Below the pieces are notes generated by a model, which was given only the letters and a program-made list of their open reading frames with translations, had not been told where the DNA came from and did no database searches. From NCBI GenBank assembly GCA_030524585.1, contig JAUNGJ010000002.1, positions 20,406-84,405 on the forward strand: a stretch of DNA of 64,000 bases, given 5' to 3'. Source of the DNA: Eubacteriales bacterium. GTDB lineage: Bacteria > Bacillota > Clostridia > Lachnospirales > Lachnospiraceae. Numbering within the stretch: the first letter of the stretch is position 1; the number at the start of each line of letters is the position of its first letter. The position numbers and the translations under genes are program-made. This document shows positions 41,899 to 57,747 of this stretch, piece after piece.

Positions 41899-42831
41899 AT
41901 GTCTAATATTTATAAAGGAACACTCGGATTAATTGGAAATACACCTCTGGTAGAGGCAGTCAACGTGGAGAGAGATTTGGAACTGGAGGCAACCATTCTG
42001 GTGAAGCTGGAATATTTCAACCCGGCAGGAAGCGTGAAGGACAGAATTGCCAAGGCAATGATTGAGGACGCAGAGGAGAAGGGAATTTTAAAGGAAGGTT
42101 CTGTAATTATAGAGCCTACGTCAGGAAATACGGGCATCGGTCTGGCAGCGATTGCAGCAGCAAAGGGATATCGAATTATTCTCACTATGCCGGAGACGAT
42201 GAGTGTTGAGAGAAGAAACATTCTGAAGGCCTATGGAGCTGAACTGGTATTGACAGAAGGCGCCAAGGGAATGAAGGGCGCAATTGCCAGAGCAGAAGAG
42301 CTGGCTAAGGAAATTCCGGGAAGCTTTATCCCCGGGCAGTTTGTGAATCCGGCCAATCCGGCAATTCACAGAAGCACAACCGGACCTGAGGTCTGGAACG
42401 ATACCGATGGAAAGGTAGACTACTTTGTGGCAGGTGTAGGAACCGGTGGAACGCTGACCGGTGTCGGCGAATATCTGAAGGCTCAGAATCCGGAGGTAAA
42501 GATTGTCGCAGTAGAGCCGGCTGGCTCTCCGGTGCTCTCGGAAGGAAAGGGCGGTCCTCATAAGATTCAGGGTATCGGAGCCGGATTTGTACCGGATGTA
42601 CTGAATACAGAGATTTATGATGAGATTATTAAAGTGGAAAATGAAGATGCATTTGCAGCAGGAAAGATCCTTGCAAAGAAGGAAGGCGTATTGGTTGGAA
42701 TTTCTTCCGGAGCAGCACTGCATGCAGCAATTCAGCTGGCAAAACGTCCGGAGAATAAAGGAAAAACTATTGTAGCGCTGCTCCCGGATACCGGTGACAG
42801 ATACTACTCTACTCCACTCTTTACAGAATAA
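41899..42831 (+). CDS. cysK: Cysteine synthase A (O-acetylserine sulfhydrylase)
   Basis: PLP-lysine motif [15 protein letters not shown] loop and GISSGA motif; 310 aa. Confidence 0.92.
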
Positions 42832-42865
42832 CAGAATAAAAATATAGAAGAATGAGGTATCTATT

Positions 42866-44176
42866 ATGGGCGAGAAAATCACAAGAGAAAACAGGAAATT
42901 TAAATTTGAAACATTACAGCTGCATGTTGGTCAGGAGAAGCCGGATCCGGTAACCGATGCCAGAGCAGTGCCGATTTATCAGACTTCATCCTATGTATTC
43001 CGCAACAGCGATCATGCGGCAGCACGTTTCGGTCTGGCGGATGCGGGAAATATTTATGGACGTCTTACAAATCCTACGGAGGATGTATTTGAGCAGAGAA
43101 TTGCGGCCCTGGAGGGCGGCGTGGCAGCGCTTGCCGTAGCATCAGGAGCAGCAGCGATCACCTATACCATCGAGAATCTGGCCCAGAATGGCGACCATAT
43201 TGTATCCGCTAAAAATATTTACGGAGGTTCCTATAATCTGCTGGCGCACACACTTCCACAGTATGGCATTCAGACAACATTTGTAGACATCTTTAATTAT
43301 GATGAGGTGGAAGCGGCAATTCAGGATAACACAAAGGCAGTTTTCATCGAAACTCTTGGCAATCCGAATTCGGACGTAGTAGATATTGAAGCCATTGCTG
43401 AAATAGCACATAAGCACAAAATTCCGCTTGTAATTGATAATACCTTTGCAACTCCATATCTGGTGCGTCCAATTGAATATGGAGCTGACATTGTGGTACA
43501 TTCCGCAACGAAATTTATCGGAGGACACGGCACGACGATTGGTGGTGTGATTATTGATTCCGGTAAATTTGACTGGGAAGCATCCGGAAAATTCCCGTCC
43601 TTAACCGAGCCGAATCCAAGCTATCACGGAATCAGCTTTACAAAGGCAGTAGGAGCGGCGGCATTTGTAACAAAGATTCGCGCGATCCTTCTGAGAGATA
43701 CCGGAGCGACGATTTCACCTTTCCATGCATTTATCTTCCTGCAGGGTCTGGAGACGCTTTCACTGAGAGTAGAGCGTCATGTGGAGAATGCGCTGAAGGT
43801 AGTAGAATATTTGAATAACCATCCACAGGTAGAAGCAGTACATCATCCGGCAGTAACTGCGGATGAAAGCCAGCAGGAACTGTATAAGAAGTATTTCCCG
43901 AATGGCGGAGGCTCCATCTTTACATTTGAGATCAAAGGGGATGCCCAGAAAGCGAAGGATTTTATCGATAATCTTGAGCTGTTCTCACTGCTTGCAAATG
44001 TAGCTGACGTGAAGTCCCTTGTGATTCATCCGGCTACCACCACACACAGCCAGTGCACGGAGGAAGAGCTGTTAGACCAGGGAATTAAGCCGAATACAGT
44101 GCGTCTCTCCATTGGAACAGAGAATATTGATGATATTATTCAGGATCTGGAAGAGGCATTCAAGGCAGTGCAGTAA
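42866..44176 (+). CDS. O-acetylhomoserine (O-acetylserine) sulfhydrylase, MetY/CysD-type
   Basis: N-terminus [11 protein letters not shown]...[15 protein letters not shown]-lysine context [10 protein letters not shown]. 436 aa. Confidence 0.88.
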
Positions 44177-44193
44177 TAGTGCGTGGGGTAATC

Positions 44194-44640
44194 ATGAAGC
44201 TTTCAAAAAAGTGCAGGTATGGACTCAGGGCTTTGATCGATCTGTCTGCAAATGCTGGGAATGAATACATGGTGCTGGGAAATATCGCGGAGCGAAATGG
44301 TGTCTCTCCACAATATCTGGAACAGGTATTTGCCAGTCTCCGAAGAGCGGGGATCGTAAAAGGAATCAAAGGCTCACAGGGAGGCTACCGGCTGAATATA
44401 GATCCGGGAGAACTTACGGTTTCGGAGATTCTGGAGGCTCTGGACGGCAGTTATCAGATTGACGCAGAGGAGACTCCGGATGACAGTCATGGCCGTGGTA
44501 TAGCAGACAGTATTCAGAATCTGGTGATTGATCAGATTAATGAAAAATTAAATCAGATATTAACGGGTATCACATTGAATGATTTGAAAAGGCATTATTT
44601 GGATTATAAAGAATACAATCAGGATATGTACTATATTTAG
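44194..44640 (+). CDS. Rrf2-family regulator, CymR-like (no Fe-S cysteine triad)
   Basis: N-terminus MKLSKKCRYGLRALIDL and ...YLEQVFASLRRAGIVKGIKGSQGGYRL. It lacks the IscR-type Cys cluster. Confidence 0.8.
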   Translation: MKLSKKCRYGLRALIDLSANAGNEYMVLGNIAERNGVSPQYLEQVFASLRRAGIVKGIKGSQGGYRLNIDPGELTVSEILEALDGSYQIDAEETPDDSHGRGIADSIQNLVIDQINEKLNQILTGITLNDLKRHYLDYKEYNQDMYYI

Positions 44641-44643
44641 TGG

Positions 44644-44671
44644 AAAGAGAGCCTTAGAGAGGCTCTCTTTT
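44644..44671 (+). terminator. Intrinsic terminator (probably partial)
   Basis: Perfect 10-bp stem AAAGAGAGCC/GGCTCTCTTT with a 7-nt loop and a short T tail. The next ATG is only 35 nt downstream. Confidence 0.65.
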
Positions 44672-44705
44672 GTAGTAAATTGGGGAAGGAAGGAAAAGAA
44701 CGGGT

Positions 44706-45851
44706 ATGGAGTATAGAATTGAGACGCGATGTATTCATGGAAAGGAACAGATGATCAAACAACATCCCTTTGGGACGGTCAGTGTGCCGATTTATCAGAC
44801 GGCAACCTTTTCTCATCCAGGTATCGGCCATTCAACGGGCTATGATTATTCAAGAGAAAGCAATCCTACGAGGAGTGAGCTGGAAGAGGTGGTTTCCTCG
44901 CTGGAGGGGGCCTTTGACACAGTGGCCTGTTCTTCTGGGATGGCGGCGGTCACACTCTGTCTGGAATTGTTTCACAGAGGGGATCATATCCTGTGTACCG
45001 ATGATCTGTACGGCGGTTCCGTGCGGGAATTTGAGACGGTTGGAAGAAAGCGGGGATTGGAATTTTCCTATGTCGATACTTCGGATTGGAAGCTCGCCGA
45101 AAGGGGGATCCAAAAAAACACCAAAGCGTTGTATATTGAGACGCCCAGCAACCCAACCATGAAGGTGACGAACCTATATAAAATGAAAGAACTGGCAAAA
45201 CAGCATGATCTTCTGCTGATCGTGGATAACACGTTTCTGACGCCATATTTCCAGAACCCTCTTGCCCTGGGGGCAGATATTGTGATTCACAGCGGCACCA
45301 AGTTTCTGGGAGGGCATAATGATACGCTGGCCGGATTCTTAAGTACATCCAGGGAAAGCCTGGCTTCTGAGATCCGTTATCTCTATAAAACGGTTGGCAG
45401 CAGTTTATCGCCCTTTGACAGTTTTTTATTGCTGCGGGGGATTAAGACATTGTCTGTCCGGCTGGAAAAACAGCAGAGCAATGCGTTGGAAATTGCCCGC
45501 TGGCTTCAGGATCATGATAAAATAGAGGATGTGTATTATGTGGGATTGCCGGAGCATCCGGGATATGATACAAACCTGGCCCAGTCCAGAGGATTCGGAA
45601 GCATGATTTCATTCCATACGGATACGCCGGAGACAGCGAGAAGGATGCTGGAGAAAATCCGGCTGATCACCTATGCGGAAAGCCTTGGCGGGGTGGAATC
45701 TCTTCTGACCTATCCTATGCTTCAGACACACGGAGATGTCCCGGCAGAGGTGCGGGAGAGGCTTGGTATTACGGATTCTTTTTTGCGGATGTCGGTTGGG
45801 ATTGAGAACATACAGGATCTGATCGAGGATCTGGAATATGCGCTTTCATAA
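44706..45851 (+). CDS. Cys/Met-metabolism PLP enzyme (cystathionine gamma-synthase / gamma-lyase / beta-lyase family)
   Basis: Motifs VPIYQTATF and the PLP-lysine context SGTKFLGGHND; 381 aa. Confidence 0.88.
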   Translation: MEYRIETRCIHGKEQMIKQHPFGTVSVPIYQTATFSHPGIGHSTGYDYSRESNPTRSELEEVVSSLEGAFDTVACSSGMAAVTLCLELFHRGDHILCTDDLYGGSVREFETVGRKRGLEFSYVDTSDWKLAERGIQKNTKALYIETPSNPTMKVTNLYKMKELAKQHDLLLIVDNTFLTPYFQNPLALGADIVIHSGTKFLGGHNDTLAGFLSTSRESLASEIRYLYKTVGSSLSPFDSFLLLRGIKTLSVRLEKQQSNALEIARWLQDHDKIEDVYYVGLPEHPGYDTNLAQSRGFGSMISFHTDTPETARRMLEKIRLITYAESLGGVESLLTYPMLQTHGDVPAEVRERLGITDSFLRMSVGIENIQDLIEDLEYALS

Positions 45852-45875
45852 ATGACAGAGGACGGAGGATAAGAA

Positions 45876-47039
45876 ATGTTTGATTTTGATACAACGATAG
45901 AACGAAGAGGAACGGATTGTTTAAAGTATGATTTTGCCAGAGAGCGGGGGATGCCGGAGGATGTGCTGCCCCTGTGGGTTGCCGACATGGATTTTGCCAC
46001 CGCGCCTGTGATTCTTGAGAAGCTGGAGCAGAGAGTCCGCCACGGAATATTCGGATATTCGGAGGGGAAAGAAGGATACTTCCGGGCTTTGGAGAGCTGG
46101 TATGAGAGACGGTTTGACTGGAAGGTTAAAAGAAGCTGGCTTGTGAAAACGCCGGGAGTAGTGTTTGCCCTTGCTACGGCTGTGCGGGCTTATACGGAGG
46201 CAGGAGATGCAGTGCTGATTCAGCAGCCGGTGTATTATCCCTTTAGTGAAGTGATTCTGGATAATGGAAGAAGATTGGTGAACAGCCCCCTGAAAATAGT
46301 GGAAGGCCGCTATGAGATGGACTTTGAGGATTTTGAGGCAAAGATCGTGGAAGAGAAGGTGAAGCTGTTTTTGCTTTGCAGTCCCCATAATCCGGCGGGC
46401 AGAGTCTGGAAAGAGTGGGAACTGAGAAAAGTGGGCGAGATTTGCCAGAAACACGGAGTACTTGTGGTCAGCGATGAGATTCACAGCGATTTTGTATGGC
46501 CTGGCAATCATCATCTGGTATTTGCGTCCCTGTCCCCGGAGCATGAAAAGATGACGGTCACCTGTACGTCGCCAAGTAAAACCTTCAATGTCGCCGGCCT
46601 TCAAATTTCGAATATTTTTATTCCGGATCCGGAGCTTCGAAGAAGGTTTCGGGAGAAGATGGCTTCGGCCGGATACAGTCAGCCGAACGTGATGGGACTG
46701 GCGGCATGCCAGGCTGCCTATGAGGGCGGAGAGCAATGGCTGGAGGAATTGAAAGGGTATATCTGGGATAATTATCTGTTCCTGAAGGATTATCTTGAGA
46801 AAAACATACCAAAGGTACAAGTCTTTCCTCTTGAGGGAACCTATCTGGTCTGGGTGGACTTCCGGCAAACGGGACTGACGGAAAAGGAGCGGCAGGATCT
46901 GATCGTAAATAAGGCGCATCTGTGGCTGGACAGCGGAGCGATGTTCGGAGAGGACGGGGAAGGCTTTGAACGGATTAACATTGCCTGCCCGAGGGCGACG
47001 CTGGAGCGGGCGTTGAGGCAGTTGGAGGAAGCACTATGA
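45876..47039 (+). CDS. patB: PatB/MalY-type aminotransferase with cystathionine beta-lyase activity
   Basis: N-terminus FDFDTTIERRGTDCLKYD, CSPHNPAGRVW and SPSKTFN (PLP lysine). Confidence 0.85.
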   Translation: MFDFDTTIERRGTDCLKYDFARERGMPEDVLPLWVADMDFATAPVILEKLEQRVRHGIFGYSEGKEGYFRALESWYERRFDWKVKRSWLVKTPGVVFALATAVRAYTEAGDAVLIQQPVYYPFSEVILDNGRRLVNSPLKIVEGRYEMDFEDFEAKIVEEKVKLFLLCSPHNPAGRVWKEWELRKVGEICQKHGVLVVSDEIHSDFVWPGNHHLVFASLSPEHEKMTVTCTSPSKTFNVAGLQISNIFIPDPELRRRFREKMASAGYSQPNVMGLAACQAAYEGGEQWLEELKGYIWDNYLFLKDYLEKNIPKVQVFPLEGTYLVWVDFRQTGLTEKERQDLIVNKAHLWLDSGAMFGEDGEGFERINIACPRATLERALRQLEEAL

Positions 47040-47656
47040 AAAATCCACTTCACTATCAATTATCAGAATATGACTGTGGACCCACGGCGATGTTGAATGC
47101 CATCAGGTTTTTGTTTGAACGGGAGGAAATATCGCCGGTGGTTATCCGGAATATTATGCTGTACTGTCTTGACAGCTATAATGATGAGGGCATTATGGGG
47201 AAATGCGGCACCTCCCATGCGGCCATGATGTTTCTCAGCAACTGGTTGAATGGATTTGGAAAGATCGGCCAGCTTCCGGTATCCAGCAGCTATCTTTCCG
47301 GCGAGGGCGTCTGGGTAGGAAAAGGAAGCCACATCAACGGCGCGCTGTGCCGGGGAGGCGTGGTGGTGGTGCGGCTGTTTTTTGACTGTGCCCACTATGT
47401 GCTGCTTACCGGGATTCGGGATGGGAAGATTCTGATGTTTGATCCCTATTATGTGGAAGGTGATCTGGAACAGCCAGGGGTGGTCCAGGTAGAGGATCAG
47501 CCCTTTTGGTATAACAGGATCGTGGATGTAAGCTGTTTTAACCGGGAGTCTACGGAGCTGTATGCCCTGGGGCCGGTGGAATGCCGGGAGGCGGTAATTA
47601 TTTACAATGACAATACAAAGAAAGAAGAGGAAGAGGCAATTGAGTATTTTATTTAA
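47036..47656 (+). CDS. Cytoplasmic papain-fold, peptidase C39-like protein
   Basis: Q-x5-C motif QLSEYDCGPTAMLNA (Cys codon at 47075-47077) and CAHYVLLTG (candidate His). No signal peptide or TM helix. The start overlaps the patB stop (ATGA). Confidence 0.55.
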   Translation: MKNPLHYQLSEYDCGPTAMLNAIRFLFEREEISPVVIRNIMLYCLDSYNDEGIMGKCGTSHAAMMFLSNWLNGFGKIGQLPVSSSYLSGEGVWVGKGSHINGALCRGGVVVVRLFFDCAHYVLLTGIRDGKILMFDPYYVEGDLEQPGVVQVEDQPFWYNRIVDVSCFNRESTELYALGPVECREAVIIYNDNTKKEEEEAIEYFI

Positions 47657-47679
47657 AACATACTATTTTGGTATGTTTT
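47655..47679 (+). terminator. Stem-loop / terminator
   Basis: 9-bp stem AAAACATAC/GTATGTTTT with a 7-nt loop; AT-rich. Confidence 0.5.
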
Positions 47680-47711
47680 AAATAAAATACAATGAAGTTA
47701 TACAGAGTCTG

Positions 47712-47739
47712 TTGACAAAAGATTTTTTCATGCTATAAT
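47712..47739 (+). promoter_or_regulatory. Consensus sigma-A promoter with an extended -10
   Basis: TTGACA (47712-47717), 16-nt spacer, TGcTATAAT (47731-47739). Confidence 0.75.
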
Positions 47740-47747
47740 CCTATTAA

Positions 47748-47759
47748 ACAGATAGGAAA
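47748..47759 (+). promoter_or_regulatory. ACAGATAGGAAA box (second copy); candidate CymR-type operator
   Basis: The 12-mer is identical to 41825-41836 and lies just downstream of the -10. ATAGGAA resembles the ATMGGAAT core of the B. subtilis CymR site. Confidence 0.35.
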
Positions 47760-47797
47760 GATATAGATAAGAAATAAAGTGGAAAGGAGAAGATAAC

Positions 47798-47947
47798 ATG
47801 ATGAAAAAGATACACAAATGTTTGGAATATATGTGTTGTTGCGGCGGTATGTGTACGCCTATGGCTGAATGTTGTCAGGATTTAATGATGCTTTCCATGC
47901 TGCAGATTTATGACTTCCGGAACAGAGAATGGACGCCGGGGTCATAA
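47798..47947 (+). CDS. 49-aa Cys/Met-rich small ORF (candidate leader peptide), absent from the ORF track
   Basis: My translation: MMKKIHKCLEYMCCCGGMCTPMAECCQDLMMLSMLQIYDFRNREWTPGS, with 7 Cys and 8 Met. SD AAGGAG (47783-47788) lies 9 nt upstream of the ATG. Confidence 0.6.
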   Translation: MMKKIHKCLEYMCCCGGMCTPMAECCQDLMMLSMLQIYDFRNREWTPGS

Positions 47948-47982
47948 TGCAGAAAAAAGGAATGGGATTCCGGAGAATACAA

Positions 47983-48009
47983 AGGAAGCATCACGCTTCC
48001 TGTTTTTTT
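47983..48009 (+). terminator. Intrinsic terminator / attenuator
   Basis: Stem AGGAAGC/GCTTCCT (47983-47989 / 47995-48001), 5-nt loop, then GTTTTTTT. The next gene's SD begins about 20 nt later. Confidence 0.75.
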
Positions 48010-48043
48010 GCGCAAAATTTACGGTATATGAGGGAGAGAGACG

Positions 48044-48703
48044 TTGGATATTGAATTTGTGACCGAATATTTGCCCATGTATGTGGAGGCTGCAAAGCTG
48101 ACGCTGCGACTGGGATTCATAGGTATTCTGTTTTCTATTGTGATTGGAATTATCTGTTCTCTGGTTGGATATTATAAGATTCCGCTGTTGAGACGGATAA
48201 CGGCAGTATACATAGAGCTGTCCAGAAATACGCCGTTGCTGGTACAGTTGTTTTTCCTGTATTTTGGACTTCCCAAGCTGGGAATCATGCTCAGCTCAGA
48301 GGGATGTGCGATCATCGGGCTCAGCTTTCTGGGCGGCAGCTATATGGCGGAGGCTTTTCGCAGCGGCCTGGAGTCCGTTGAAAAAAGCCAGGTGGAGTCA
48401 GCCCTTGCCATAGGACTGAGTCACCCTCAGGCGATGCGTTACGTGGTTTTTCCGCAGGCGTTGGCGGTATCCATACCGCCCCTTTGTGCGAATATCATTT
48501 TTCTGATCAAGGAGACCTCCGTGTTCAGTGTGGTAGCGCTTGCCGATCTGATGTATGTGGCGAAGGATCTGATCGGGCTGTATTACCAGACGGACGAGGC
48601 GCTGCTGATGCTGGTGATTGCCTATCTGATCTTGCTGCTGCCGGTTTCTCTGGCGGCGGGCTTGCTGGAGAGGAGGTTAAGGTATGCAGGATTTGGGAAT
48701 TAG
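48044..48703 (+). CDS. Polar amino-acid ABC permease (TcyL/YxeN-like)
   Basis: His/Glu/Gln/Arg/opine-family permease features, including the EAA-type loop ALAIGLSHPQAMRYVVFPQA. TTG start after SD GAGGGAGAG. Confidence 0.85.
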   Translation: MDIEFVTEYLPMYVEAAKLTLRLGFIGILFSIVIGIICSLVGYYKIPLLRRITAVYIELSRNTPLLVQLFFLYFGLPKLGIMLSSEGCAIIGLSFLGGSYMAEAFRSGLESVEKSQVESALAIGLSHPQAMRYVVFPQALAVSIPPLCANIIFLIKETSVFSVVALADLMYVAKDLIGLYYQTDEALLMLVIAYLILLLPVSLAAGLLERRLRYAGFGN

Positions 48704-49361
48704 AGTATTGTTCATGGGCAATAACTTTTCCAGGCTGTTAGGGGGCCTGTGGATTACCGTCAAGATTTCTCTGATTGCGGTTGCCCTGTCGATGGTATTG
48801 GGAATCCTTCTGGGGATGGTTATGACGCTGAAACATCCGGTTACCAGATTTATTACAAAGGTGTATCTGGAATTTATCCGAATCATGCCCCAGCTGGTGC
48901 TTCTGTTTCTGGTGTATTTCGGACTCACCAAATCCTTCGGAATCCAGCTGTCCGGGCAGACTGCCGCGGTGATCGTGTTTACCCTCTGGGGGACGGCAGA
49001 GATGGGAGACCTGGTCAGAGGAGCGCTGATCTCCATACCAAAGCATCAGTACGAAAGCGGTGCGGCGCTGGAACTTGAGAGCAGGCAGATTTACCGGTAT
49101 ATCATCATTCCCCAGACCCTCAGGAGATTGATTCCGTTAGCCATTAATCTGACGACCAGAATGATTAAGACCACATCGCTGATCGTGTTGATCGGAGTGG
49201 TCGAGGTGCTGAAAACGGCGCAGCAGATTATTGAGGCGAACCGGTATACGGTTCCGGATTCGGCTCTTTGGATTTACGGAATGATTTTCTTCCTGTATTT
49301 CATCGTCTGTTGGCCAATCTCCAGATTCGCGGCAAGGATGGAAAAGAAATGGGAGAATTAA
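48684..49361 (+). CDS. Polar amino-acid ABC permease (TcyM-like)
   Basis: Second permease paralogue, with loop ESGAALELESRQIYRYIIIPQ. SD GAGGAGG upstream. Confidence 0.85.
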   Translation: MQDLGIRVLFMGNNFSRLLGGLWITVKISLIAVALSMVLGILLGMVMTLKHPVTRFITKVYLEFIRIMPQLVLLFLVYFGLTKSFGIQLSGQTAAVIVFTLWGTAEMGDLVRGALISIPKHQYESGAALELESRQIYRYIIIPQTLRRLIPLAINLTTRMIKTTSLIVLIGVVEVLKTAQQIIEANRYTVPDSALWIYGMIFFLYFIVCWPISRFAARMEKKWEN

Positions 49362-49376
49362 CCGGGAGGTGGTTTT

Positions 49377-50123
49377 GTGGAAGAGAAAGAAAAATTGCTG
49401 GAGGTACATGAGCTTTACAAGGATTACGGCAATGGTCCGGTACTGAAAGGCATATCGCTGGACGTACATAAAGGGGAGGTCGTGGTTCTGGTAGGACCTT
49501 CCGGCTGTGGAAAGAGCACGTTCCTTCGATGTATGAACGGGCTGGAGGCAATCCAGTCCGGGGAAATACGTTTGGATGGCAACGTGATCACAGATGATAA
49601 AACGAAATGGAGTGATGTGCGGCAAAAAATAGGAATGGTATTTCAAAGCTATGAGCTGTTTCCGCATATGACAGTTATGGACAATATTCTGCTGGGGCCT
49701 TTAAAGGTACAGAGAAAGGATAAAAGAGCGGCGGAAAAAGAAGCGGAGAAGCTTTTGGAGAGAGTTGGCCTCCTGGATAAGAGGGATTCCTTTCCCAGGC
49801 AGTTATCCGGGGGCCAGAAGCAGAGGGTGGCAATCGTCAGGGCACTGATCATGAAGCCGGAGATACTTCTTTTTGATGAAGTGACGGCGGCGCTGGATCC
49901 GGAAATGGTGCGGGAAGTGCTGGACGTTATGCTGGAGCTGGCAAGGGAAGGCTCTACCATGGTGATTGTTACTCATGAGATGCAGTTTGCCAGGGCGGTT
50001 GCAGACCGCATCGTATTTTTAGACGGTGGTGAAATTGTAGAGATGGATGCACCGGAGAACTTTTTTACCCGACCAAAAACCGAGCGCGCGCAGAGGTTTT
50101 TGAATACATTTACATTTAACTAA
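49377..50123 (+). CDS. Polar amino-acid ABC ATP-binding protein (TcyN/GlnQ-like)
   Basis: Walker A GPSGCGKST, signature LSGGQKQRV, Walker B LLFDEVTAALD. GTG start after a GGAGG SD. Confidence 0.9.
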   Translation: MEEKEKLLEVHELYKDYGNGPVLKGISLDVHKGEVVVLVGPSGCGKSTFLRCMNGLEAIQSGEIRLDGNVITDDKTKWSDVRQKIGMVFQSYELFPHMTVMDNILLGPLKVQRKDKRAAEKEAEKLLERVGLLDKRDSFPRQLSGGQKQRVAIVRALIMKPEILLFDEVTAALDPEMVREVLDVMLELAREGSTMVIVTHEMQFARAVADRIVFLDGGEIVEMDAPENFFTRPKTERAQRFLNTFTFN

Positions 50124-50140
50124 AAGGAAGGATGGTTATT

Positions 50141-51748
50141 ATGAAAAAGATTTTTACATTATTACTGGCATTTGTTCTTATACTGGGAACATTGACAGGA
50201 TGCGGACAGAAAGCCGACGGTAAAGCGGAGGCAGATGACGGGGAGCGGGTATACCGCACTCTGGATGAGATCAAGGAAAGCGGTAAGATTGTTGTGGGAG
50301 TATTCAGCGATAAAAATCCATTTGGCTATGTGGATGAGAACGGCGACTACCAGGGCTATGACGTTTATTTTGCAGAGCGTCTGGCGAAGGATCTTGGCGT
50401 AGATATTGAATATGTGTCTACAGAAGCCGCAAGCCGTGTGGAATATCTGGAATCCGGAAAAGTTGACGTGGTCCTGGCAAACTTTACGGTGACAGAGGAA
50501 CGTGCAGAGTCCGTAGATTTCGCGCTGCCATATATGAAGGTTGCCCTTGGAGTGGTTTCTCCGGATGACGCTCTGATCACAAGTGCGGATGAGCTAAAAG
50601 GTAAAACACTGATTGTTGCAAAAGGAACTACTGCCGAGACCTACTTTACGGAAAATTATCCGGATGTAGAGCTGCTGAAGTTTGATCAGTATACAGAAGC
50701 TTACAACGCGCTGCTGGACGGCAGAGGCGACGCACTTTCTACTGACAATACGGAGGTTCTGGCATGGGCGCTTCAGAATGAAGGCTTTTCTGTGGGAGTA
50801 GAATCCCTGGGAGATCTGGATACCATTGCACCGGCCGTATCAAAGGGAAATGATACATTAAAAGACTGGATCAATGACGAAATCGTGTCGCTGGCAGATG
50901 AGCAGTTCTTCCATGCAGACTATAAAGAAACGCTGGAACCTGTATACGGTTCAGAAGTAGATATCGACAGCCTGGTAGTAGAAGGCGGCGTGGTTGAAGA
51001 AGAAACAGAAGCAAAGGGAACCATTACGGTGGCAGCATCTGCCACTCCTCACGCGGAGATTCTGGAGCAGGCAAAGCCTCTGCTTGCAAAAGAAGGATGG
51101 GATCTGGAAGTGACCGTGTTTGATGATTATGTACAGCCAAATCTGGTAGTTGAAAGTGATGAGTTTGACGCAAATTACTTCCAGCATATCCCGTATCTGG
51201 AAGATTTTAATAAGGAGCAGGGAACCCATCTGGTCAATGTGGGCGGCATTCACTACGAACCATTCGGTATCTATCCGGGAACCAAAGATTCTCTGGATGA
51301 TCTGAAAAAGGGCGATGTCATTGCTGTGCCAAATGACACAACCAATGAGGCCAGAGCATTGCTTCTTCTGGAGGCAAATGGTGTGATTACTCTGAAAGAC
51401 GGGGCAGGGCTTGCCGCAACGGTAAAGGATATCAAGGATAATCCGCTGGATATCCAGATTCAGGAGCTGGAAGCAGCGCAGGTATCCAGAGTAAAGGATG
51501 AGGTGGCCTTTGTGGTACTGAACGGAAATTATGCATTGGAGGCAGGCTTTTCCGTAGCAAAGGATGCTATCGCCTATGAAACTTCTGACTCAGAGGCTGC
51601 AAAGACATATGTGAATGTGATTGCAGTAAAAGAGGGAAATGAGGATTCAGAGGGAGTGAAGGCGCTGGTTAAGGTATTGAAGTCTGATGCGATCAAAGAC
51701 TATATTACAGAGACCTATGACGGAGCAGTTATTCCGTTTGAAGAATAA
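50141..51748 (+). CDS. Lipoprotein with two fused solute-binding domains: family-3 polar amino-acid SBP plus MetQ/NlpA-type methionine SBP
   Basis: Lipobox LTGC. Roughly aa 40-290 look like SBP_bac_3 (GKIVVGVFSDKNPFGY...KGTTAE). After an E-rich linker, roughly aa 295-535 look like MetQ (ITVAASATPHAEILE...DANYFQHIPYLEDFN...VAVPNDTTNEARAL). ATG 50141 lies 9 nt after SD AAGGAAGG. Confidence 0.85.
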   Translation: MKKIFTLLLAFVLILGTLTGCGQKADGKAEADDGERVYRTLDEIKESGKIVVGVFSDKNPFGYVDENGDYQGYDVYFAERLAKDLGVDIEYVSTEAASRVEYLESGKVDVVLANFTVTEERAESVDFALPYMKVALGVVSPDDALITSADELKGKTLIVAKGTTAETYFTENYPDVELLKFDQYTEAYNALLDGRGDALSTDNTEVLAWALQNEGFSVGVESLGDLDTIAPAVSKGNDTLKDWINDEIVSLADEQFFHADYKETLEPVYGSEVDIDSLVVEGGVVEEETEAKGTITVAASATPHAEILEQAKPLLAKEGWDLEVTVFDDYVQPNLVVESDEFDANYFQHIPYLEDFNKEQGTHLVNVGGIHYEPFGIYPGTKDSLDDLKKGDVIAVPNDTTNEARALLLLEANGVITLKDGAGLAATVKDIKDNPLDIQIQELEAAQVSRVKDEVAFVVLNGNYALEAGFSVAKDAIAYETSDSEAAKTYVNVIAVKEGNEDSEGVKALVKVLKSDAIKDYITETYDGAVIPFEE

Positions 51749-51803
51749 ATCTGACAGGCAGTTCGATATGCAGAAGACGTTTCCCGATACGTCTGATTGG
51801 CAT

Positions 51804-51860
51804 ACGAAAGTATAGAAAAGCAGGGATGCTGCGTCTAAAGGGCGGCATCCCAACTTTCGT
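51804..51860 (+). other. Nested intergenic RNA stem-loop between the SBP gene and metN
   Basis: Outer stem ACGAAAGT/ACTTTCGT (51804-51811 / 51853-51860) encloses a 10-bp stem GGGATGCTGC/GCGGCATCCC (51823-51832 / 51842-51851). No U-tract follows. Confidence 0.5.
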
Positions 51861-51889
51861 TCATAGAATCTATGGGAAGGAGCAATACA

Positions 51890-52693
51890 ATGGAGCCAAT
51901 GATAAGGGTAGAACATTTGAATAAAGTATTCCGGTCTGCCGGGGAGGAGGTGACTGCCGCAGATGATATCAGCTTTGCGATTGATAAGGGAGACATCTAC
52001 GGGGTCATCGGATTATCCGGCGCGGGGAAAAGCACGCTGGTCAGGTGCCTGAATCTGCTGGAGAAACCGTCCTCCGGGAATGTGTACATAGGAGAGAAGA
52101 ATCTCACGAAGCTTTCCGGAAAGGAACTGCGGATGGAGAGGCGAAAGATCGGAATGATTTTTCAGCATTTTAATCTTCTGATGCAGAGAACTGTGCTGGA
52201 CAATGTGTGCTTTCCTCTGGAAATTGCGGGAATGAAGAAGAAAGAGGCCAGAGAACGCGCGAGGAAGATGCTGCAGACAGTAGGATTGGAGGATAAAGCA
52301 AAGGCCTATCCGGTCCAGCTGTCCGGAGGCCAGAAGCAAAGAGTTGCCATTGCCCGCGTGCTGGCGGCAAATCCTGAGATCATACTCTGTGATGAGGCAA
52401 CCAGCGCTCTGGATCCTCAGACTACAAAATCGATACTTGACTTGTTGAGGGATATTAATCAGCAGTATGGAATCACGATCGTGGTGATCACCCATGAGAT
52501 GAGTGTGGTGCGGGAAATCTGCAGCCACGTGGCAGTTCTGGATCGTGGAAGGCTGGTAGAGTCCGGAACGGTGAAGGAGGTATTTGGCGCGCCGAAGACC
52601 GAGGCGGCCCGGAGGCTGATCCTATATGGAGGAAGCCCGGCGGGCAGATGGGAAGAACGAAGAATTGCGGAGGATTTGGATCATGTGGGATAA
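51890..52693 (+). CDS. metN: Methionine-type ABC ATP-binding protein (MetN-like, no C-terminal NIL domain)
   Basis: Walker A GLSGAGKST, signature LSGGQKQRV, Walker B ILCDEATSALD. Only about 267 aa. ATG 51890 lies 7 nt after SD GGAAGGAG. Confidence 0.8.
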   Translation: MEPMIRVEHLNKVFRSAGEEVTAADDISFAIDKGDIYGVIGLSGAGKSTLVRCLNLLEKPSSGNVYIGEKNLTKLSGKELRMERRKIGMIFQHFNLLMQRTVLDNVCFPLEIAGMKKKEARERARKMLQTVGLEDKAKAYPVQLSGGQKQRVAIARVLAANPEIILCDEATSALDPQTTKSILDLLRDINQQYGITIVVITHEMSVVREICSHVAVLDRGRLVESGTVKEVFGAPKTEAARRLILYGGSPAGRWEERRIAEDLDHVG

Positions 52694-53345
52694 GGAAATG
52701 ATTACCATGTTAGTGGACGGAACTGTGGATACACTTTATATGACGCTGATATCAACGCTGTTCGGGTATGTGCTGGGGCTCCCGATGGGGATTCTGCTGG
52801 CGGTAACCGATAAAGAAGGAATCCGGCCAAATGGGTTGTTATATAAAATACTGGATTTCATAGCAAATCTGATCAGAAGTATTCCGTTTTTGATTCTTCT
52901 GATTCTTGTAATACCGCTGACAAAGCTGATCGTAGGACAGAGCTATGGTCCAAACGGTACGGTGGTGCCCCTTGTGATTGCGGCGGCGCCTTTTATCGGC
53001 CGTATGGTAGAGTCTTCTCTGAAGGAAGTGGATCAGGGAGTAATTGAGGCGGCGATCAGCATGGGAGCCGGAACCGGGGAGATTATCTGGAAGGTTTTGC
53101 TGGCGGAGGCGCGCACATCGCTGCTTGTGGGAGTCACCATTGCTATCGGCACGATCCTCGGCTATTCGGCGATGGCCGGAGTGGTAGGAGGCGGAGGTCT
53201 GGGAGATATTGCCATCCGCTATGGCTATTACCGGTATCAGACGGACGTAATGCTGGTGACGATCGTCATTCTGGTGCTTTTGGTACAGATTATGCAGGGC
53301 TTGGGAATGCTGCTGTCAAAGAAAATGGATAAGCGAAGAGTATAG
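52683..53345 (+). CDS. metI: Methionine ABC permease (MetI-like)
   Basis: Five TM helices and the loop EAAISMGAGTGEIIWKVLL. ATG 52683 lies 8 nt after SD GGAGGA and overlaps the metN stop. Confidence 0.8.
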   Translation: MWDKEMITMLVDGTVDTLYMTLISTLFGYVLGLPMGILLAVTDKEGIRPNGLLYKILDFIANLIRSIPFLILLILVIPLTKLIVGQSYGPNGTVVPLVIAAAPFIGRMVESSLKEVDQGVIEAAISMGAGTGEIIWKVLLAEARTSLLVGVTIAIGTILGYSAMAGVVGGGGLGDIAIRYGYYRYQTDVMLVTIVILVLLVQIMQGLGMLLSKKMDKRRV

Positions 53346-53380
53346 GAAATCGGAAAAAGAGATATAAAAGGAGATATAAG

Positions 53381-54586
53381 ATGGGAAAACACACATTTGG
53401 AAGCGAATACGGATTTCAGACAAGAGCAGTACACACAGGGAATGATATTGACCGGGAGACCGGAGCAATCAAACGCCCGATTACGATGGCAAACAGCTAT
53501 GCGCTCCCCTACGATCCGACGGATCTGAACTGGAGCAGCGCGGGAGGGAACCTTTATACAAGAAACGGCGGTTCGAACCAGCAGTATTTACAGGAGAAGA
53601 TCGCCAGCCTGGAAGGCGGTGAGGACTGTATTGTGCTTGCCTCCGGCGTGGCTGCTCTATCCGGTCTGTTTTTTGCTCTGCTGGAAAAAGGAGATCACGT
53701 TATTTTCTCCAGTGTGACTTATATTGCGGTATATCGTCTTCTTCATGAGCTTTTGAATCACAAGTTTGGCGTGGAGACAAGTCTTGTGGATACTTCGGAT
53801 GTGGAAAATGTAAAGAAGGCGATACGGCCGAATACGAAACTGATCCATATTGAGACGCCCGGCAATCCCACGCTGACGGTATCGGATATCCGGGCAATCG
53901 CCGAGGCTGCCCATGAGCATGGGATCTTACTGTCCGTGGACAATACCTTTGCTTCGCCGTATAACCAGCGCCCGATTGAACTGGGGGCAGATTTTTCCAT
54001 AGAAAGCCTGACGAAATTTATCAATGGTCACGGAGACTCTATGGGCGGTTCCATTACCGGGAGGAAAGAATACCTCGATAAAATCCGCGCCCAATCGCAG
54101 GTGAATCTTGGAGGAACTATCAGCCCGTTTAATGCATGGCTGATTATGCGCGGCGCGGTAACCTTTCCCCTCCGGATGAGGCAGCACAATGAGAACGCTC
54201 TTGCGGTGGCAAAATGGCTGGAACAGCAGGAATGCGTCAGCTTCGTGGCATACCCGGGACTAAAGAGCAGCCGGGGATATGAGACCGCTGTGAAGCAGAT
54301 GAATCCAGGCTTTGGGGGAGTGCTCTCTTTTGGATTAAAAGCAGATCACGATACCCACAATCAGTTTGTAAGCCATCTGAATGTAATTACCTCTGCGGTA
54401 TCTCTTGGGCACGACGAAAGCCTGATCGTATTTTTGGGAGAAGACGACGAACGACAGTATCTGTATCCGGATGAATTTTCCAATGGATTTTTCCGGTTTT
54501 CGGTAGGAATAGAGGATGTAGAAGATATTATTGGAGATCTCAGACAGGCTCTTGGCAAATGCGGGTTCAAAACAGGCGGGGAATAA
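53381..54586 (+). CDS. Cys/Met-metabolism PLP enzyme, methionine gamma-lyase-like
   Basis: Motif FQTRAVHTG and PLP-lysine context SLTKFINGHGD; 401 aa. Confidence 0.8.
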   Translation: MGKHTFGSEYGFQTRAVHTGNDIDRETGAIKRPITMANSYALPYDPTDLNWSSAGGNLYTRNGGSNQQYLQEKIASLEGGEDCIVLASGVAALSGLFFALLEKGDHVIFSSVTYIAVYRLLHELLNHKFGVETSLVDTSDVENVKKAIRPNTKLIHIETPGNPTLTVSDIRAIAEAAHEHGILLSVDNTFASPYNQRPIELGADFSIESLTKFINGHGDSMGGSITGRKEYLDKIRAQSQVNLGGTISPFNAWLIMRGAVTFPLRMRQHNENALAVAKWLEQQECVSFVAYPGLKSSRGYETAVKQMNPGFGGVLSFGLKADHDTHNQFVSHLNVITSAVSLGHDESLIVFLGEDDERQYLYPDEFSNGFFRFSVGIEDVEDIIGDLRQALGKCGFKTGGE

Positions 54587-54592
54587 AAGGAC

Positions 54593-55732
54593 ATGAAATC
54601 TATCACAGTGAATGAGCTGGAGAAGCTGGATCCGGAAAAGATTACAATTATTGATATCCGAAAGCAGGAGGATTATCAGAGAAATACGATTCCGAATGCA
54701 ATCAACGTTCCCACAGAGACCTTTCAGGACACCATACCGGATCTGGATAGGGCAAAACCAGTATACGTCCTGTGCTATACAGGTGAGAAAAGCGATGGAG
54801 CTGTGGAGCTGCTGGAAGAGGCAGGGTATGATGCGGCAAATATTACCGGAGGCTACCGGGCGTTCCTGCGGCTTAAGTTAAGCCGGATGGTGCAGAACGA
54901 ATCGGAGCTTGAAGAAAAAAGGAAAGAAATTGAGAGAAGTCTGCTGAAAAAATTCCGGAAATCAATCTGGAGAAAATTTACGAAAGCCGTGCAGGAATAC
55001 CAGCTGATCCAGGAAGGAGATAAGATTGCGGTCTGCATATCCGGAGGGAAGGATTCCATGCTGATGGCGAAATTATTTCAGGAACTGCAAAGGCATGGAA
55101 AGATACCCTTTGAACTGGTTTTTCTGGTGATGAATCCGGGATATAACCAGGACAACTGGAAGATTATTCAGGATAATGCCAGAGTCCTTGGGATTCCGCT
55201 GACCGTATTTGAAAGTGATATATTCAATATTGTTGCAGGGGTTGATAAGAATCCCTGCTATCTGTGTGCCCGTATGAGGAGAGGGTATCTGTATTCGAAT
55301 GCAAAGAGGCTGGGATGCAATAAGATTGCGCTGGGACATCATTTTGACGATGTGATTGAGACCATTCTCATGGGAATGCTTTACAGCGGGAAGATAGAGA
55401 CGATGATGCCGAAGCTTCACAGTACAAATTTTGAAGGAATGGAATTAATCCGGCCGCTTTATATGGTGAAGGAAGCGGATATTAAGGCGTGGCGTGATTA
55501 TAACAGCCTTCATTTTATTCAGTGCGCCTGCAGATTTACAGAAAACTGCGCAAGCTGCGGGGGCGGAAGAGGTTCTAAGCGGGATGAGATGAAAGAGCTG
55601 ATTGCAGGGTTCCGGCAAACCAGTGGTCTGATAGAGGCCAATATTTTTAAAAGTGTCTATAATATTAATCTTCGGACTGTAATCGGATATCAAAAAGATG
55701 GGCAGACACATAATTTTTTGGAGAATTATTAA
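54593..55732 (+). CDS. Rhodanese domain fused to a TtcA-family PP-loop ATPase (tRNA/sulfur-transfer enzyme)
   Basis: Rhodanese active-site loop VLCYTGEKS. PP-loop CISGGKDS. CYLCARMRRG as in TtcA. Extra C-terminal Cys cluster CACRFTENCASCGGG. Confidence 0.75.
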   Translation: MKSITVNELEKLDPEKITIIDIRKQEDYQRNTIPNAINVPTETFQDTIPDLDRAKPVYVLCYTGEKSDGAVELLEEAGYDAANITGGYRAFLRLKLSRMVQNESELEEKRKEIERSLLKKFRKSIWRKFTKAVQEYQLIQEGDKIAVCISGGKDSMLMAKLFQELQRHGKIPFELVFLVMNPGYNQDNWKIIQDNARVLGIPLTVFESDIFNIVAGVDKNPCYLCARMRRGYLYSNAKRLGCNKIALGHHFDDVIETILMGMLYSGKIETMMPKLHSTNFEGMELIRPLYMVKEADIKAWRDYNSLHFIQCACRFTENCASCGGGRGSKRDEMKELIAGFRQTSGLIEANIFKSVYNINLRTVIGYQKDGQTHNFLENY

Positions 55733-55831
55733 AAAAGGAAGAATGGAAAAGACACAAAAGATTTGCACAGAACCACATAAAAAGCACACATTTCCCTGCT
55801 ATGCTGAATCACAGCGAAGGAGGCAGTGTGA

Positions 55832-57700
55832 ATGAAAGCATCAAACAGGAAGATTATGCTCTATATTGGAGGCATGACATGTATAAATTGCCAGAATAAA
55901 ATCGAAAAAACATTAAATAAAACCTATGGTGTGTGCAGTGCCAGGGTCAGTTACCGTGACGGCAGGGCTGAAATTGTCTATGATGAGAAAAAAATTTCCG
56001 TGCGGGAGATTAGGGAGACGATTGAAAGCCTGGACTATGAAGTCCTGGACAGACCGCAAAAGCAGGTGCCGGATATTATTCGTACGATATATCTGCTGGC
56101 GGTTATTCTTATGCTGTATGTGATTCTGCAGTCCCAGAACCTTCTGAACCGTCTGGTTCCAAGTCAGCTTGCTGACAGTAAAATGGGATATGGAATGCTG
56201 TTTATCATCGGTCTGATCACTTCGGTACACTGTATCGCCATGTGCGGCGGCATTAATCTTTCCCAGTGCATTCCCCAGTCTGAACAGGGAGAGGAGGGCG
56301 GCGGAAAGCTGTCGGCTTTTCGGGCTGCCTTTCTGTATAATCTGGGACGTGTAATTTCCTATACGGCAATTGGTTTTGTGCTGGGATTGCTGGGCATGAT
56401 AATCGGCGGTGACGCCCAGATCGGAATGGGGGAGATTTTGCAGGGTATTGTGAAAATCATTGCCGGTGTGTTTATGATAATTATGGGAATTAACCTGCTG
56501 GGACTCTTTCCGGGCCTGCGGAAATTTACCATACGGATGCCGCGGACTCTGGCCGTCAGGGTCGGAGTAGAGAGGGCAAAAAGTAACCGTCCATTTTATG
56601 TGGGAATTTTGAATGGATTTATGCCATGCGGGCCGCTGCAGGCCATGTGGATCGTGGCTCTTGGGACGACGAATCCGCTGGCAGGAGCGCTGTCTATGTT
56701 TCTGTTTAGTCTGGGAACGGTGCCGTTAATGCTGGGGCTGGGTTCTATAGTATCGGCGCTTGGAAAGAAATTTACGAAGAAGATGATGACGGCAGGCGCT
56801 GTTCTGGTGGTGGTGCTTGGCCTTGCGATGGTTTCTCAGGGATGTTCTCTAAGCGGCCTGTCTCCCGTCTGGGGCAGGCAGAAAAAAGCGGAGGCAGGTG
56901 AAGCCGGGGACGTATCCATTCAGAATACAGATGGTATCCAGGAGGTTCACAGCACACTGGAAATCGGTCGCTATCCCAACATTACTGTACAGAAGGGGAT
57001 TCCTGTGAAATGGATCATTGACGCCCCAGAAGGAAGCATCAATGGATGCAATTACAGAATGCGGATCCCGAATCTGAATCTGGAGCACACCTTCCAGGCC
57101 GGAGAAAATGTTATTGAATTTACACCGGAAGAAATCGGCACGATTCAATATAGCTGCTGGATGGGCATGATTCATGGCAGCATTTATGTGACCGACGATG
57201 GAACAGAGGCAGAGGATGTAACAGAAAGTAACGCAGTGGAACAGGAGGCGGCAGAAGCAGTTCCATCCGGATATTCCATTCCGACGGAGAACATTGCCGT
57301 TGCGTCCATGGGCGAAGACGAGCAGGGGAATCCCATTCAGAAAGTTGACGTAAGGCTGACGGATCAGGGATTTGAGCCTGCAATCGTGGTGGTGCAAAAG
57401 GAAATAAATGTAATCTGGAATATTACGGTGGAAAGGGAAGATGCTGATGGGGGAATTGATTTTCTTGCACCCATGTATTCCACGAAGCTGACGCTGGAAA
57501 GTGGAGAGAATCCCCTGTCGCTGTATCCAACGGAGGATTTTGATGTTGCTGTCGGCGATTATAAAGGATTTGCATATCTGAAGGTGGTGGACGATTTGAA
57601 TTATATAGATGAAACGGCCATTCGGGCGGAAGTGGCGGATTATGAGCCGCAGATTTACCCGGCGTCTATCTATGATACAGGTATGAGCTGCTGCAATTAA
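55832..57700 (+). CDS. Fusion protein: HMA metal-binding domain, DsbD_2/TauE-like membrane domain and two cupredoxin-like domains
   Basis: GMTCINC (HMA). TM core with SVHCIAMCGG and FMPCGPL. A cupredoxin-like domain with NGC...YSCWMGMIHG. Second beta-rich domain. C-terminal MSCCN. Confidence 0.7.
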   Translation: MKASNRKIMLYIGGMTCINCQNKIEKTLNKTYGVCSARVSYRDGRAEIVYDEKKISVREIRETIESLDYEVLDRPQKQVPDIIRTIYLLAVILMLYVILQSQNLLNRLVPSQLADSKMGYGMLFIIGLITSVHCIAMCGGINLSQCIPQSEQGEEGGGKLSAFRAAFLYNLGRVISYTAIGFVLGLLGMIIGGDAQIGMGEILQGIVKIIAGVFMIIMGINLLGLFPGLRKFTIRMPRTLAVRVGVERAKSNRPFYVGILNGFMPCGPLQAMWIVALGTTNPLAGALSMFLFSLGTVPLMLGLGSIVSALGKKFTKKMMTAGAVLVVVLGLAMVSQGCSLSGLSPVWGRQKKAEAGEAGDVSIQNTDGIQEVHSTLEIGRYPNITVQKGIPVKWIIDAPEGSINGCNYRMRIPNLNLEHTFQAGENVIEFTPEEIGTIQYSCWMGMIHGSIYVTDDGTEAEDVTESNAVEQEAAEAVPSGYSIPTENIAVASMGEDEQGNPIQKVDVRLTDQGFEPAIVVVQKEINVIWNITVEREDADGGIDFLAPMYSTKLTLESGENPLSLYPTEDFDVAVGDYKGFAYLKVVDDLNYIDETAIRAEVADYEPQIYPASIYDTGMSCCN

Positions 57701-57720
57701 ACTCAATTTTTATGAAGCTG

Positions 57721-57747
57721 CCCAAGTTTTCAGGCTTGGGTTGTTTG
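57721..57747 (+). terminator. Weak intrinsic terminator
   Basis: 6-bp stem CCCAAG/CTTGGG, 8-nt loop, then TTGTTTG. Confidence 0.45.

Follow-up and report, generated by a model that had tools for sequence, protein, structure and literature searches.

A candidate cysteine-codon leader-peptide attenuator ahead of a sulfur amino-acid uptake operon in Clostridia

Transcription attenuation by a translated leader peptide is a textbook mechanism, and the leaders thrL and ilvL are precedents for sensing more than one amino acid. In Firmicutes, cysteine (Cys) and methionine (Met) genes are usually controlled by RNA elements, the S-box and the T-box, and not by leader peptides (PMC2940859, PMC1262725), and in Clostridium perfringens the T-box(Cys) terminators of cysP1 and cysP2 read the charging of tRNA-Cys (PMC2940859). 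Leaders with Cys codons were predicted in Actinobacteria, where they come without terminators (PMC1262725). Experimental work on the polycysteine leaderless short open reading frames (sORFs) of mycobacteria found that they act on translation, by pairing of a poly-Cys tract with the Shine-Dalgarno sequence (SD) that serves the following gene, independently of any terminator (Canestrari et al. 2020, 10.1101/834739), and a third element, uORFC-8-2 upstream of cysS in Rhodobacterales, was predicted to carry two Cys codons followed by a terminator (PMC8632094). Here we analyzed a 64-kb stretch of a Lachnospiraceae genome (contig JAUNGJ010000002.1, positions 20,406 to 84,405; hereafter the window), in which the original prediction had read a short Cys/Met-rich open reading frame (ORF) in front of a sulfur amino-acid importer operon as a leader-peptide attenuator. 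That reading is supported by the recurrence of the leader at related operons, by the terminators and the position of the antiterminator, by the lack of an S-box or T-box and by the enrichment of Met codons. From sequence comparison and RNA-folding models we consider it likely that the element is a ribosome-mediated transcription attenuator for an operon of sulfur amino-acid uptake and salvage.

The leader ORF (47798-47947) has 49 codons and encodes MMKKIHKCLEYMCCCGGMCTPMAECCQDLMMLSMLQIYDFRNREWTPGS. Seven of its codons are Cys (8, 13-15, 19, 25 and 26) and eight are Met (1, 2, 12, 18, 22, 30, 31 and 34), which makes 15/49 and agrees exactly with the translation claimed for it; the frame ends at a UAA stop codon (47945-47947). 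Like the other leader elements and the first permease gene, it lies on the forward (+) strand. The SD AAGGAG is at 47784-47789, 8 nt before the ATG at 47798, so the original prediction had found this site and placed it one base too far to the left (47783-47788). Transcription would be driven by a sigma-70-type promoter (47712-47739) with a -35 element TTGACA (47712-47717), a 16-nt spacer and an extended -10 element TGcTATAAT (TATAAT at 47734-47739). This promoter, described earlier as near-consensus, scored 12/12 in a consensus scan in addition to the extended -10 TG, and between its -10 and the leader ATG lies a 5' untranslated region (UTR) of ~50 nt that contains the SD.

An intrinsic terminator (47983-48009) follows the leader and consists of region 3 (AGGAAGC, 47983-47989), the loop AUCAC, region 4 (GCUUCCU, 47995-48001), a G and a run of seven U (48003-48009). 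The hairpin and its T-run are as originally described, with the hairpin beginning 35 nt after the stop codon rather than 36. The SD of the first permease gene, GAGGGAGAGAG, comes next (~48030-48040), and the gene itself, which matches BPD_transp_1, runs from a TTG start at 48044 to 48703; the N-terminus read from this TTG agrees with the orthologues. A simple scan of 48010-48043 found no promoter-like site, in line with the earlier claim that no promoter fits between terminator and permease.

The 3' half of the leader ORF contains a segment that can pair with the terminator. Region 2 (47876-47896), the candidate antiterminator 5' strand, comprises CAGGA (47876-47880) and UGAUGCUUUCC (47886-47896) and holds an in-frame GCUUYC box; in silico, UGAUGCUUUCC pairs with GGAAGCAUCA (47984-47993) and CAGGA pairs with UCCUG (47998-48002). 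The pairing found by hand in the original prediction (47887-47896 with 47984-47992) is thus real and longer than described. Calculated energies are -13.9 kcal/mol for the 2:3 duplex and -9.5 kcal/mol for the terminator hairpin. Between the two strands, the minimum free energy (MFE) structures contain a spacer hairpin (47899-47952) that includes the leader stop codon and, when untranslated, puts region 2 beside region 3; a small hairpin GGAAU-GGG-AUUCC (47959-47971) between the spacer hairpin and the terminator is present in all predicted folds. In the MFE fold of the free RNA, the leader SD region GUGGAAAGGAG (47779-47789) pairs with 47889-47897, and this duplex of -10.7 kcal/mol was equalled by 10/300 shuffles. 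Because the SD region is complementary to region 2, it takes the place of region 1 and completes a 1:2 / 2:3 / 3:4 layout. Upstream of region 2 lie the candidate sensor codons (47819-47875), namely Cys 8, 13-15, 19 and 25-26 and Met 12, 18 and 22.

Folding with masked ribosome footprints suggested that in the window the position of the ribosome may decide between the two structures. The probability of the terminator was 0.90 in free RNA and fell to 0.38 when a ribosome masked the RNA up to 47855, that is, with a ribosome on the first Cys cluster, where the antiterminator became the MFE fold. An A-site-based footprint on Met18 or Met22 gave 0.19 or 0.14, so that some ribosome positions lower the probability to 0.14-0.38, and a ribosome past 47888 or at the stop codon gave 0.97-0.99. 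Since attenuation is kinetic and these equilibrium values are sensitive to the footprint, we also folded truncated transcripts that lacked the terminator 3' arm and compared them with 60 shuffles. Before its 3' arm exists, the terminator 5' arm of the window is 70% paired to region 2, a level that 1/60 shuffles reach.

These features place the locus close to the Proteobacterial attenuators trpL, hisL, thrL, ilvL and pheL, with which it shares an SD-led short ORF enriched in codons of the regulated amino acid(s), predicted alternative 1:2, 2:3 and 3:4 pairings, a terminator before the first structural gene and a peptide that drifts. It differs from them in that the codons are Cys and Met, the host belongs to the Clostridia and the targets are ATP-binding cassette (ABC) importers and salvage enzymes rather than biosynthesis; in addition, region 1 is the leader's own SD and the element is stacked on a candidate promoter operator. 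In contrast to trpL, the stop codon lies within the spacer hairpin between regions 2 and 3, and a terminating ribosome would not sit on region 2. The mycobacterial polycysteine sORFs are alike in that unannotated upstream Cys runs report charged tRNA-Cys to cysteine operons, with several independent loci following one logic. They are leaderless, whereas the leader studied here has a 5' UTR with an SD; moreover, a terminator is present here, the predicted folds show no pairing of the Cys codons with the permease SD, and no Met enrichment has been reported for the mycobacterial elements.

The element also resembles uORFC-8-2, which has tandem Cys codons and then a U-tailed stem. Ribosome-mediated attenuation is predicted for uORFC-8-2 and for the Actinobacterial cys leaders alike, and the element shares with both a case built purely on comparison. 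By its published description, uORFC-8-2 has two tandem Cys codons at about codons 14-15, within the first of two stems, and precedes the aminoacyl-tRNA synthetase gene cysS in alpha-proteobacteria; in contrast, the leaders described here have up to 10 Cys codons plus Met, occur in Clostridia and precede an ABC permease gene. The Actinobacterial cys leaders differ by lacking the terminator present here. T-box(Cys), S-box (SAM-I) and CymR do the same physiological job, with the difference from the T-box that charging would here be read by the ribosome and not by direct RNA-tRNA contact. No report of a Cys or Met leader peptide in Clostridia or other Firmicutes, and none of Met as a regulatory codon in a leader peptide, was found in a full-text search that left most subscription journals outside. 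Within that limit, the earlier statement that a dual Cys+Met leader is undescribed stands, with the amendment that Actinobacteria and alpha-proteobacteria were known before to have Cys leaders; what appears new for this kind of attenuator is its specificity (Cys, probably also Met), its host group and its importer targets.

Recurrence of the leader was assessed at 80 loci (L001 to L080) that encode relatives of the first permease with 64-89% identity, taken from one genome per species and mostly from Clostridia metagenome-assembled genomes (MAGs). Under a strict definition, three or more consecutive Cys codons in an ORF no farther than 400 nt upstream of the permease start, the leader was present at 12/80 loci on the sense strand and at 0/80 on the antisense strand. 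The background rate in the rest of the same loci (0.0126 per 400 nt) would give about one, and shuffled sequences averaged 0.27 and never exceeded 3. Scoring windows more loosely for Cys and Met identified 16 loci (L007, L021, L025, L027, L028, L036, L037, L041, L044, L048, L053, L054, L069, L070, L075 and L080), which together with the window make the 17 leaders considered below; the MAGs that carry them are labelled Lachnospiraceae, Oscillospiraceae, Faecalibacterium, Herbinix, Lacrimispora, Eubacterium and others. Both the ORF and its Cys/Met enrichment thus recur in orthologous intergenic regions.

This excess bears on the alternative that a chance ORF lies in an ordinary 5' UTR in front of an unrelated or decaying terminator. 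Short ORFs are common, and the window contains six ORFs with a CCC run where the background rate leads us to estimate about four. The leader is the only intergenic one, the other five lying within long ORFs on either strand, and the upstream excess among the orthologues (12 against about one) is strand-specific; chance alone is an extremely improbable explanation. Those five ORFs were also considered as extra leaders and were rejected for the same location within long ORFs.

What recurs is the codon identity rather than the peptide. The 17 leader peptides range from 23 to 52 residues and can hardly be aligned: mean column identity is 20%, and apart from the initiator Met and the Cys run no column is nearly invariant. 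Across 16 leaders (one near-duplicate excluded), 15.8% of residues are Cys and 10.7% are non-initiator Met. The corresponding shares in proteins of the window are 1.3% and 2.3%, which makes the enrichment 12-fold for Cys and 4.6-fold for Met. The codons GTG, TTG, CTG and TGG are not enriched, which argues against simple TG-rich low complexity. Because the looser score itself included Met, we re-tested Met on the set defined by Cys runs only and found 38/399 residues (9.5% against 2.3%, p = 3e-13). Met also clusters beside Cys, accounting for 19% of non-Cys residues within three positions of a Cys and 8% farther away, as in HMMCCCC, MMICMCCCFM, MCMDSMCMCCC and AMHMCCCCACCM. We lean, by a little, toward Met being sensed as well as Cys.

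The signals around the ORFs recur as well. By eye, about 14-15 of the 17 start contexts have a canonical SD at normal spacing, and an intrinsic terminator stands between the ORF stop and the permease start in all 17. Conservation of codon identity, SD and terminator while the peptide drifts points to a regulatory leader peptide rather than a functional small protein. A strong promoter, an SD and a terminator do resemble a stand-alone small gene, which could encode, for example, a metal- or redox-active Cys/Met-rich protein, with the operon expressed independently or by incidental read-through, and gene callers have predicted the leader ORF twice in public data (P0001 and P0002). Against such a protein, the length and sequence of the peptide vary and conservation is limited to the Cys/Met codons and an RNA box, and the ORF always lies directly upstream of the same operon, with no promoter after the window terminator. 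The peptide has no Pfam or NCBIfam match. A protein-database search with it returned a single match, the 92%-identical copy P0001 on L081; L081 comes from a metagenome and matches the leader of the window at 95% identity. In an alignment reading, the L081 ORF differs from that of the window by four amino-acid changes and two silent ones while every Cys and Met is kept, a ratio that also speaks against a functional protein, and both changes that fall in the spacer hairpin preserve pairing (C-G to U-G and U-G to C-G). We regard a functional small protein as quite improbable. A search with the alignment of all 17 leaders retrieved only P0002, identical to the L041 leader; protein searches could not widen the family because leader peptides are rarely called as genes.

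The alternative pairing is positioned consistently across the family. A duplex scan for the segment that best pairs with the terminator 5' arm placed it shortly after the Cys codons in 16/17 leaders, either in the last part of the ORF or immediately beyond it, although only ~43% of the scanned range falls there. Truncated transcripts showed strong pre-pairing of the terminator 5' arm in L007 (0.92, 0/60 shuffles), L027 (0.81, 0/60), L041 (0.93, 0/60) and L044 (0.80, 1/60), and weaker pre-pairing in L028, L075, L037 and L069. At equilibrium, a simulated Cys stall lowered the terminator probability in L007 from 0.95 to 0.00, and similar stalls lowered it to 0.01-0.20 in L054, L080, L041 and, partly, L027. 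In these models, an antiterminator that excludes the terminator and depends on ribosome position is clear in the window, L007, L027, L041, L054 and L080.

The window, L007, L027, L028 and L041 form a Lachnospiraceae-type subfamily with a common RNA box. Its in-frame sequence is (A/G)UGCUUCC, which reads (M/A/V)-L-P/S, and the terminator arms are GGGAAGC on the 5' side and GCUUCC on the 3' side, so that the in-frame GCUUCC box pairs with the GGAAGC arm. In L041, region 3 is GGGGAGCA (an A-to-G change); by our reading, region 4 (UGCUCC) carries the compensating change and region 2 can still pair by way of G-U. The SD region is complementary to region 2 in four of the five members, with 0/300, 3/300 and 0/300 shuffles doing as well in L007, L027 and L041. 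The hairpin that separates regions 2 and 3 and includes the stop codon is variable, and the sequence of this part is not conserved; stop-containing hairpins like that of the window occur in L007, L028 and L041. A DNA pattern for this layout, GCTTYC-N70-95-GGAAGC-N3-9-GCTTCYTNTTT, matched at least 120 stretches in metagenomes, and among the matches listed there were only chance ones, without Cys-run ORFs. A twin of L041 (L202, 2042-3802) has, just upstream of the leader, a gene for a fused homocysteine S-methyltransferase and methylenetetrahydrofolate reductase, another link to the methionine pathway.

A conserved box and hairpin could also be read as an RNA motif, which raises the alternative of a terminator/antiterminator switch operated by a protein or a small ligand, with the ORF incidental or tolerated; an RNA-binding attenuation protein or a riboswitch of an unknown class would be examples. 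The usual control of Cys/Met genes in Firmicutes by S-box and T-box RNAs lends this idea some weight (PMC2940859, PMC1262725), as do the GCUUCC/GGAAGC boxes and the spacer hairpin. Rfam searches gave no relevant match in the whole window at gathering score and no family match in 47600-48150 even at E = 10 (E <= 10), the weak mir and sroE matches there being mere hairpins, so that no S-box, T-box or other family is found at the leader; the 40 orthologous loci scanned (L001-L040 of the 80) contained only tRNAs, with no S-box or T-box. The unconserved sequence between regions 2 and 3 likewise argues against this reading, and a switch of this kind would not explain why ORFs with Cys runs and good SDs are in excess on one strand or why the GCUUCC box has a fixed frame (Leu-Pro/Ser). 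We consider it improbable.

A further alternative keeps the ribosome and changes the route: the poly-Cys ORF could act through translational control of the permease, Rho-dependent polarity or a nascent-peptide or redox-dependent arrest in place of tRNA charging. The mycobacterial poly-Cys sORFs, which act on translation, are a precedent (10.1101/834739), and equilibrium folding without a terminator switch in 9/17 leaders would fit such a route. Every leader has a canonical intrinsic terminator, and the leader has a 5' UTR and an SD and is not leaderless. Folding predicts local pairing for the Cys codons and none with the permease SD, the region of which pairs with the U-tract at most. We regard these other routes as quite improbable.

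The attenuator would work as follows. We infer translation of the leader, stalling and the order of folding from the layout described above. Transcription would start just after the -10, at ~47746, and the leader would be translated from its own SD. With Cys-tRNA and Met-tRNA plentiful, the ribosome would cross region 2, melt the spacer hairpin and reach the stop codon at 47945; region 2 would be covered, be kept at a distance from region 3 or pair again with region 1, the hairpin at 47983-48001 with its U7 would form, and transcription would end at 48003-48009, before the permease gene. With charged tRNA-Cys scarce, and probably elongator tRNA-Met too, the ribosome would stall in codons 8-26 and leave region 2 free. 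The spacer hairpin would then fold behind the polymerase and put region 2 beside the emerging region 3, the 2:3 helix would form before region 4 is made, and RNA polymerase would read into the operon. A separate operator palindrome probably adds repressor control.

Several points weigh against this attenuator or restrict it. Met30, Met31 and Met34 lie within region 2 and cannot be inducing stall sites, as a ribosome stalled there would mask the antiterminator strand; the effective sensor codons are therefore about codons 8-26. The original prediction that a stall at Cys or Met codons frees 47887-47896 accordingly holds for codons 8-26 and fails for Met30, Met31 and Met34, and a Met sensor role would fall to Met12, Met18, Met22 and their counterparts in other leaders. 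Region 2 also lies ~50 nt upstream of the stop codon, and a terminating ribosome leaves it unmasked, unlike in trpL. The OFF state would therefore need ribosome transit or re-pairing with the SD region, a kinetic argument. In Bacillus subtilis, RNA polymerase outruns the ribosomes, which would make ribosome-coupled attenuation harder in Firmicutes. The folding results are uneven as well: the terminator probability in the window ranges from 0.14 to 0.96 with the assumed footprint position, and with an A-site-based footprint on Cys25 or Cys26 it is 0.79, so that the terminator is still favored at equilibrium. Elsewhere in the family, pre-pairing was negative against shuffles in L021, L025, L036, L048, L053, L080 and L070, and 9/17 leaders, with strong terminators, show no switch in equilibrium folding.

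The two closest relatives add a last point on that side. L001 and L002, with 89% permease identity, share the promoter and operator of the window and have neither leader nor terminator; the promoter, which L081 keeps too, runs straight into the permease gene there (L001 2920-3003 and L002 2900-3002, compared with 47700-48046 in the window). In L001 the SD and start of the permease occupy the position of the window's leader SD and start. From this comparison the ~250-nt attenuator looks like a module that has been gained or lost, and one that is dispensable, since L001 and L002 do without it. Two other leaderless-looking loci without a Cys-run ORF, L015 (-104..-82 from the permease start) and L018 (-84..-49), have in common a strong GC-rich terminator-like hairpin, GGCAGGGGTTGTGCCCCTGCC plus Ts, which may be a different attenuation device.

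The promoter carries a candidate operator of its own. A 17-bp palindrome, CCTATTAAACAGATAGG (47740-47756, with no strand assigned), lies directly 3' of the -10 and overlaps the predicted transcription start. Its motif, CCTAY-N7-RTAGG, usually followed by AAA, occurs once in the window and matches upstream of 19/80 orthologous loci, mostly just downstream of a promoter and whether a leader is present or absent; the loci with the palindrome include the window, L001, L002, L004, L006, L008, L014, L022, L032, L037, L041, L049-L051, L057, L068 and L077. The palindrome is probably a repressor operator, and because this conserved site overlaps the transcription start, the leader would be a second layer of control stacked on it. 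A gene for an Rrf2-family regulator (44179-44640) lies 3 kb upstream of the leader, beside the end of a cysK-like gene (stop near 42830; its CysK likeness was read by eye from the C-terminal sequence only) and two genes for Cys/Met pyridoxal-phosphate (PLP) enzymes. In L066 an Rrf2 gene stands directly upstream of the transporter operon, and in C. acetobutylicum a CymR candidate adjoins cysK (PMC3828012). That an Rrf2/CymR-like repressor acts on the palindrome is a reasonable guess; no published CymR motif sequence for comparison was found in two papers on CymR (one of them PMC3828012).

Upstream of the promoter there is an AT-rich inverted repeat, AAAACATAC-N7-GTATGTTTT (47655-47679), which begins where the preceding gene ends, at its stop codon, and lies ~35 nt ahead of the -35. 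The repeat is kept in L001 and also in L002, although the upstream gene of L002 differs and has a strong terminator of its own. It may serve as a weak terminator or as another site where a protein binds, and weak Rfam miRNA-type matches at 47644-47690 reflect its hairpin. The gene directly upstream of the leader is a 206-aa ORF (47036-47656) without a Pfam match, and homologous sequence precedes the promoter of L001.

The operon behind the leader codes for a cystine-type transporter, a MetNIQ-type transporter and a Cys/Met PLP enzyme, and family matches bear out the gene content originally assigned to it. Two polar-amino-acid permease genes (starts at 48044 and 48684) are followed by an ATPase gene (49377; best matches GlnQ and TcyN), a gene for a fused SBP_bac_3 and NlpA/MetQ binding protein (50132), MetN (51872) and MetI (52626) genes, the Cys/Met PLP enzyme gene (53381) and a rhodanese-TtcA fusion gene (54593). 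The operon extends to at least 55732, and no strong terminator or promoter was found in its interior up to 57720. Ahead of metN, the fused binding-protein gene is followed by 124 nt of intergenic sequence (51749-51871) with a GC-rich hairpin, GGGATGC...GCATCCC, without a T-run or a consensus promoter, which might be a processing or stability element. After the rhodanese-TtcA gene lies a gene for a 622-aa fusion protein (55832-57700) that joins an HMA metal-binding domain to a DsbD_2 membrane domain and to a weak cupredoxin-like region; the gene ends at a terminator (57720-57741) and may belong to the same transcript.

The leader lies within a sulfur amino-acid island of ~41900-57700. The order of this island is the end of the cysK-like gene, an O-acetylhomoserine (OAH)-sulfhydrylase-like gene (42866-44176), the Rrf2 gene, a Cys_Met_Meta_PP gene (44706-45851) and a class I/II aminotransferase gene (45876-47039), followed by the regulated operon.

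Taken jointly, with chances that we judge about even, these observations would describe a widespread and previously undescribed family of dual Cys/Met attenuators in gut Clostridia (Lachnospiraceae, Oscillospiraceae and others). It would contain the first regulatory codons for elongator Met and would bring ribosome-coupled attenuation into a phylum of T-boxes, riboswitches and repressors, as a module that close relatives have gained or lost and that adds to an Rrf2/CymR-type operator for two-input control of sulfur amino-acid uptake. If confirmed, the family would fill a gap in the regulation of sulfur amino acids in abundant gut anaerobes, where about a fifth of the orthologous transporter operons examined have the leader and 0/40 of those scanned have an S-box or T-box. 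It would also mean that Clostridia have enough transcription-translation coupling or pausing for attenuation read by the ribosome, and that Met codons join the known sensor codons. The combination of an SD, a Cys/Met run, a complement of the terminator arm and a terminator is a searchable annotation signature that assigns a sulfur amino-acid function to generic polar-amino-acid ABC transporters, and the leaders are candidate cysteine/methionine-responsive parts for engineering gut commensals.

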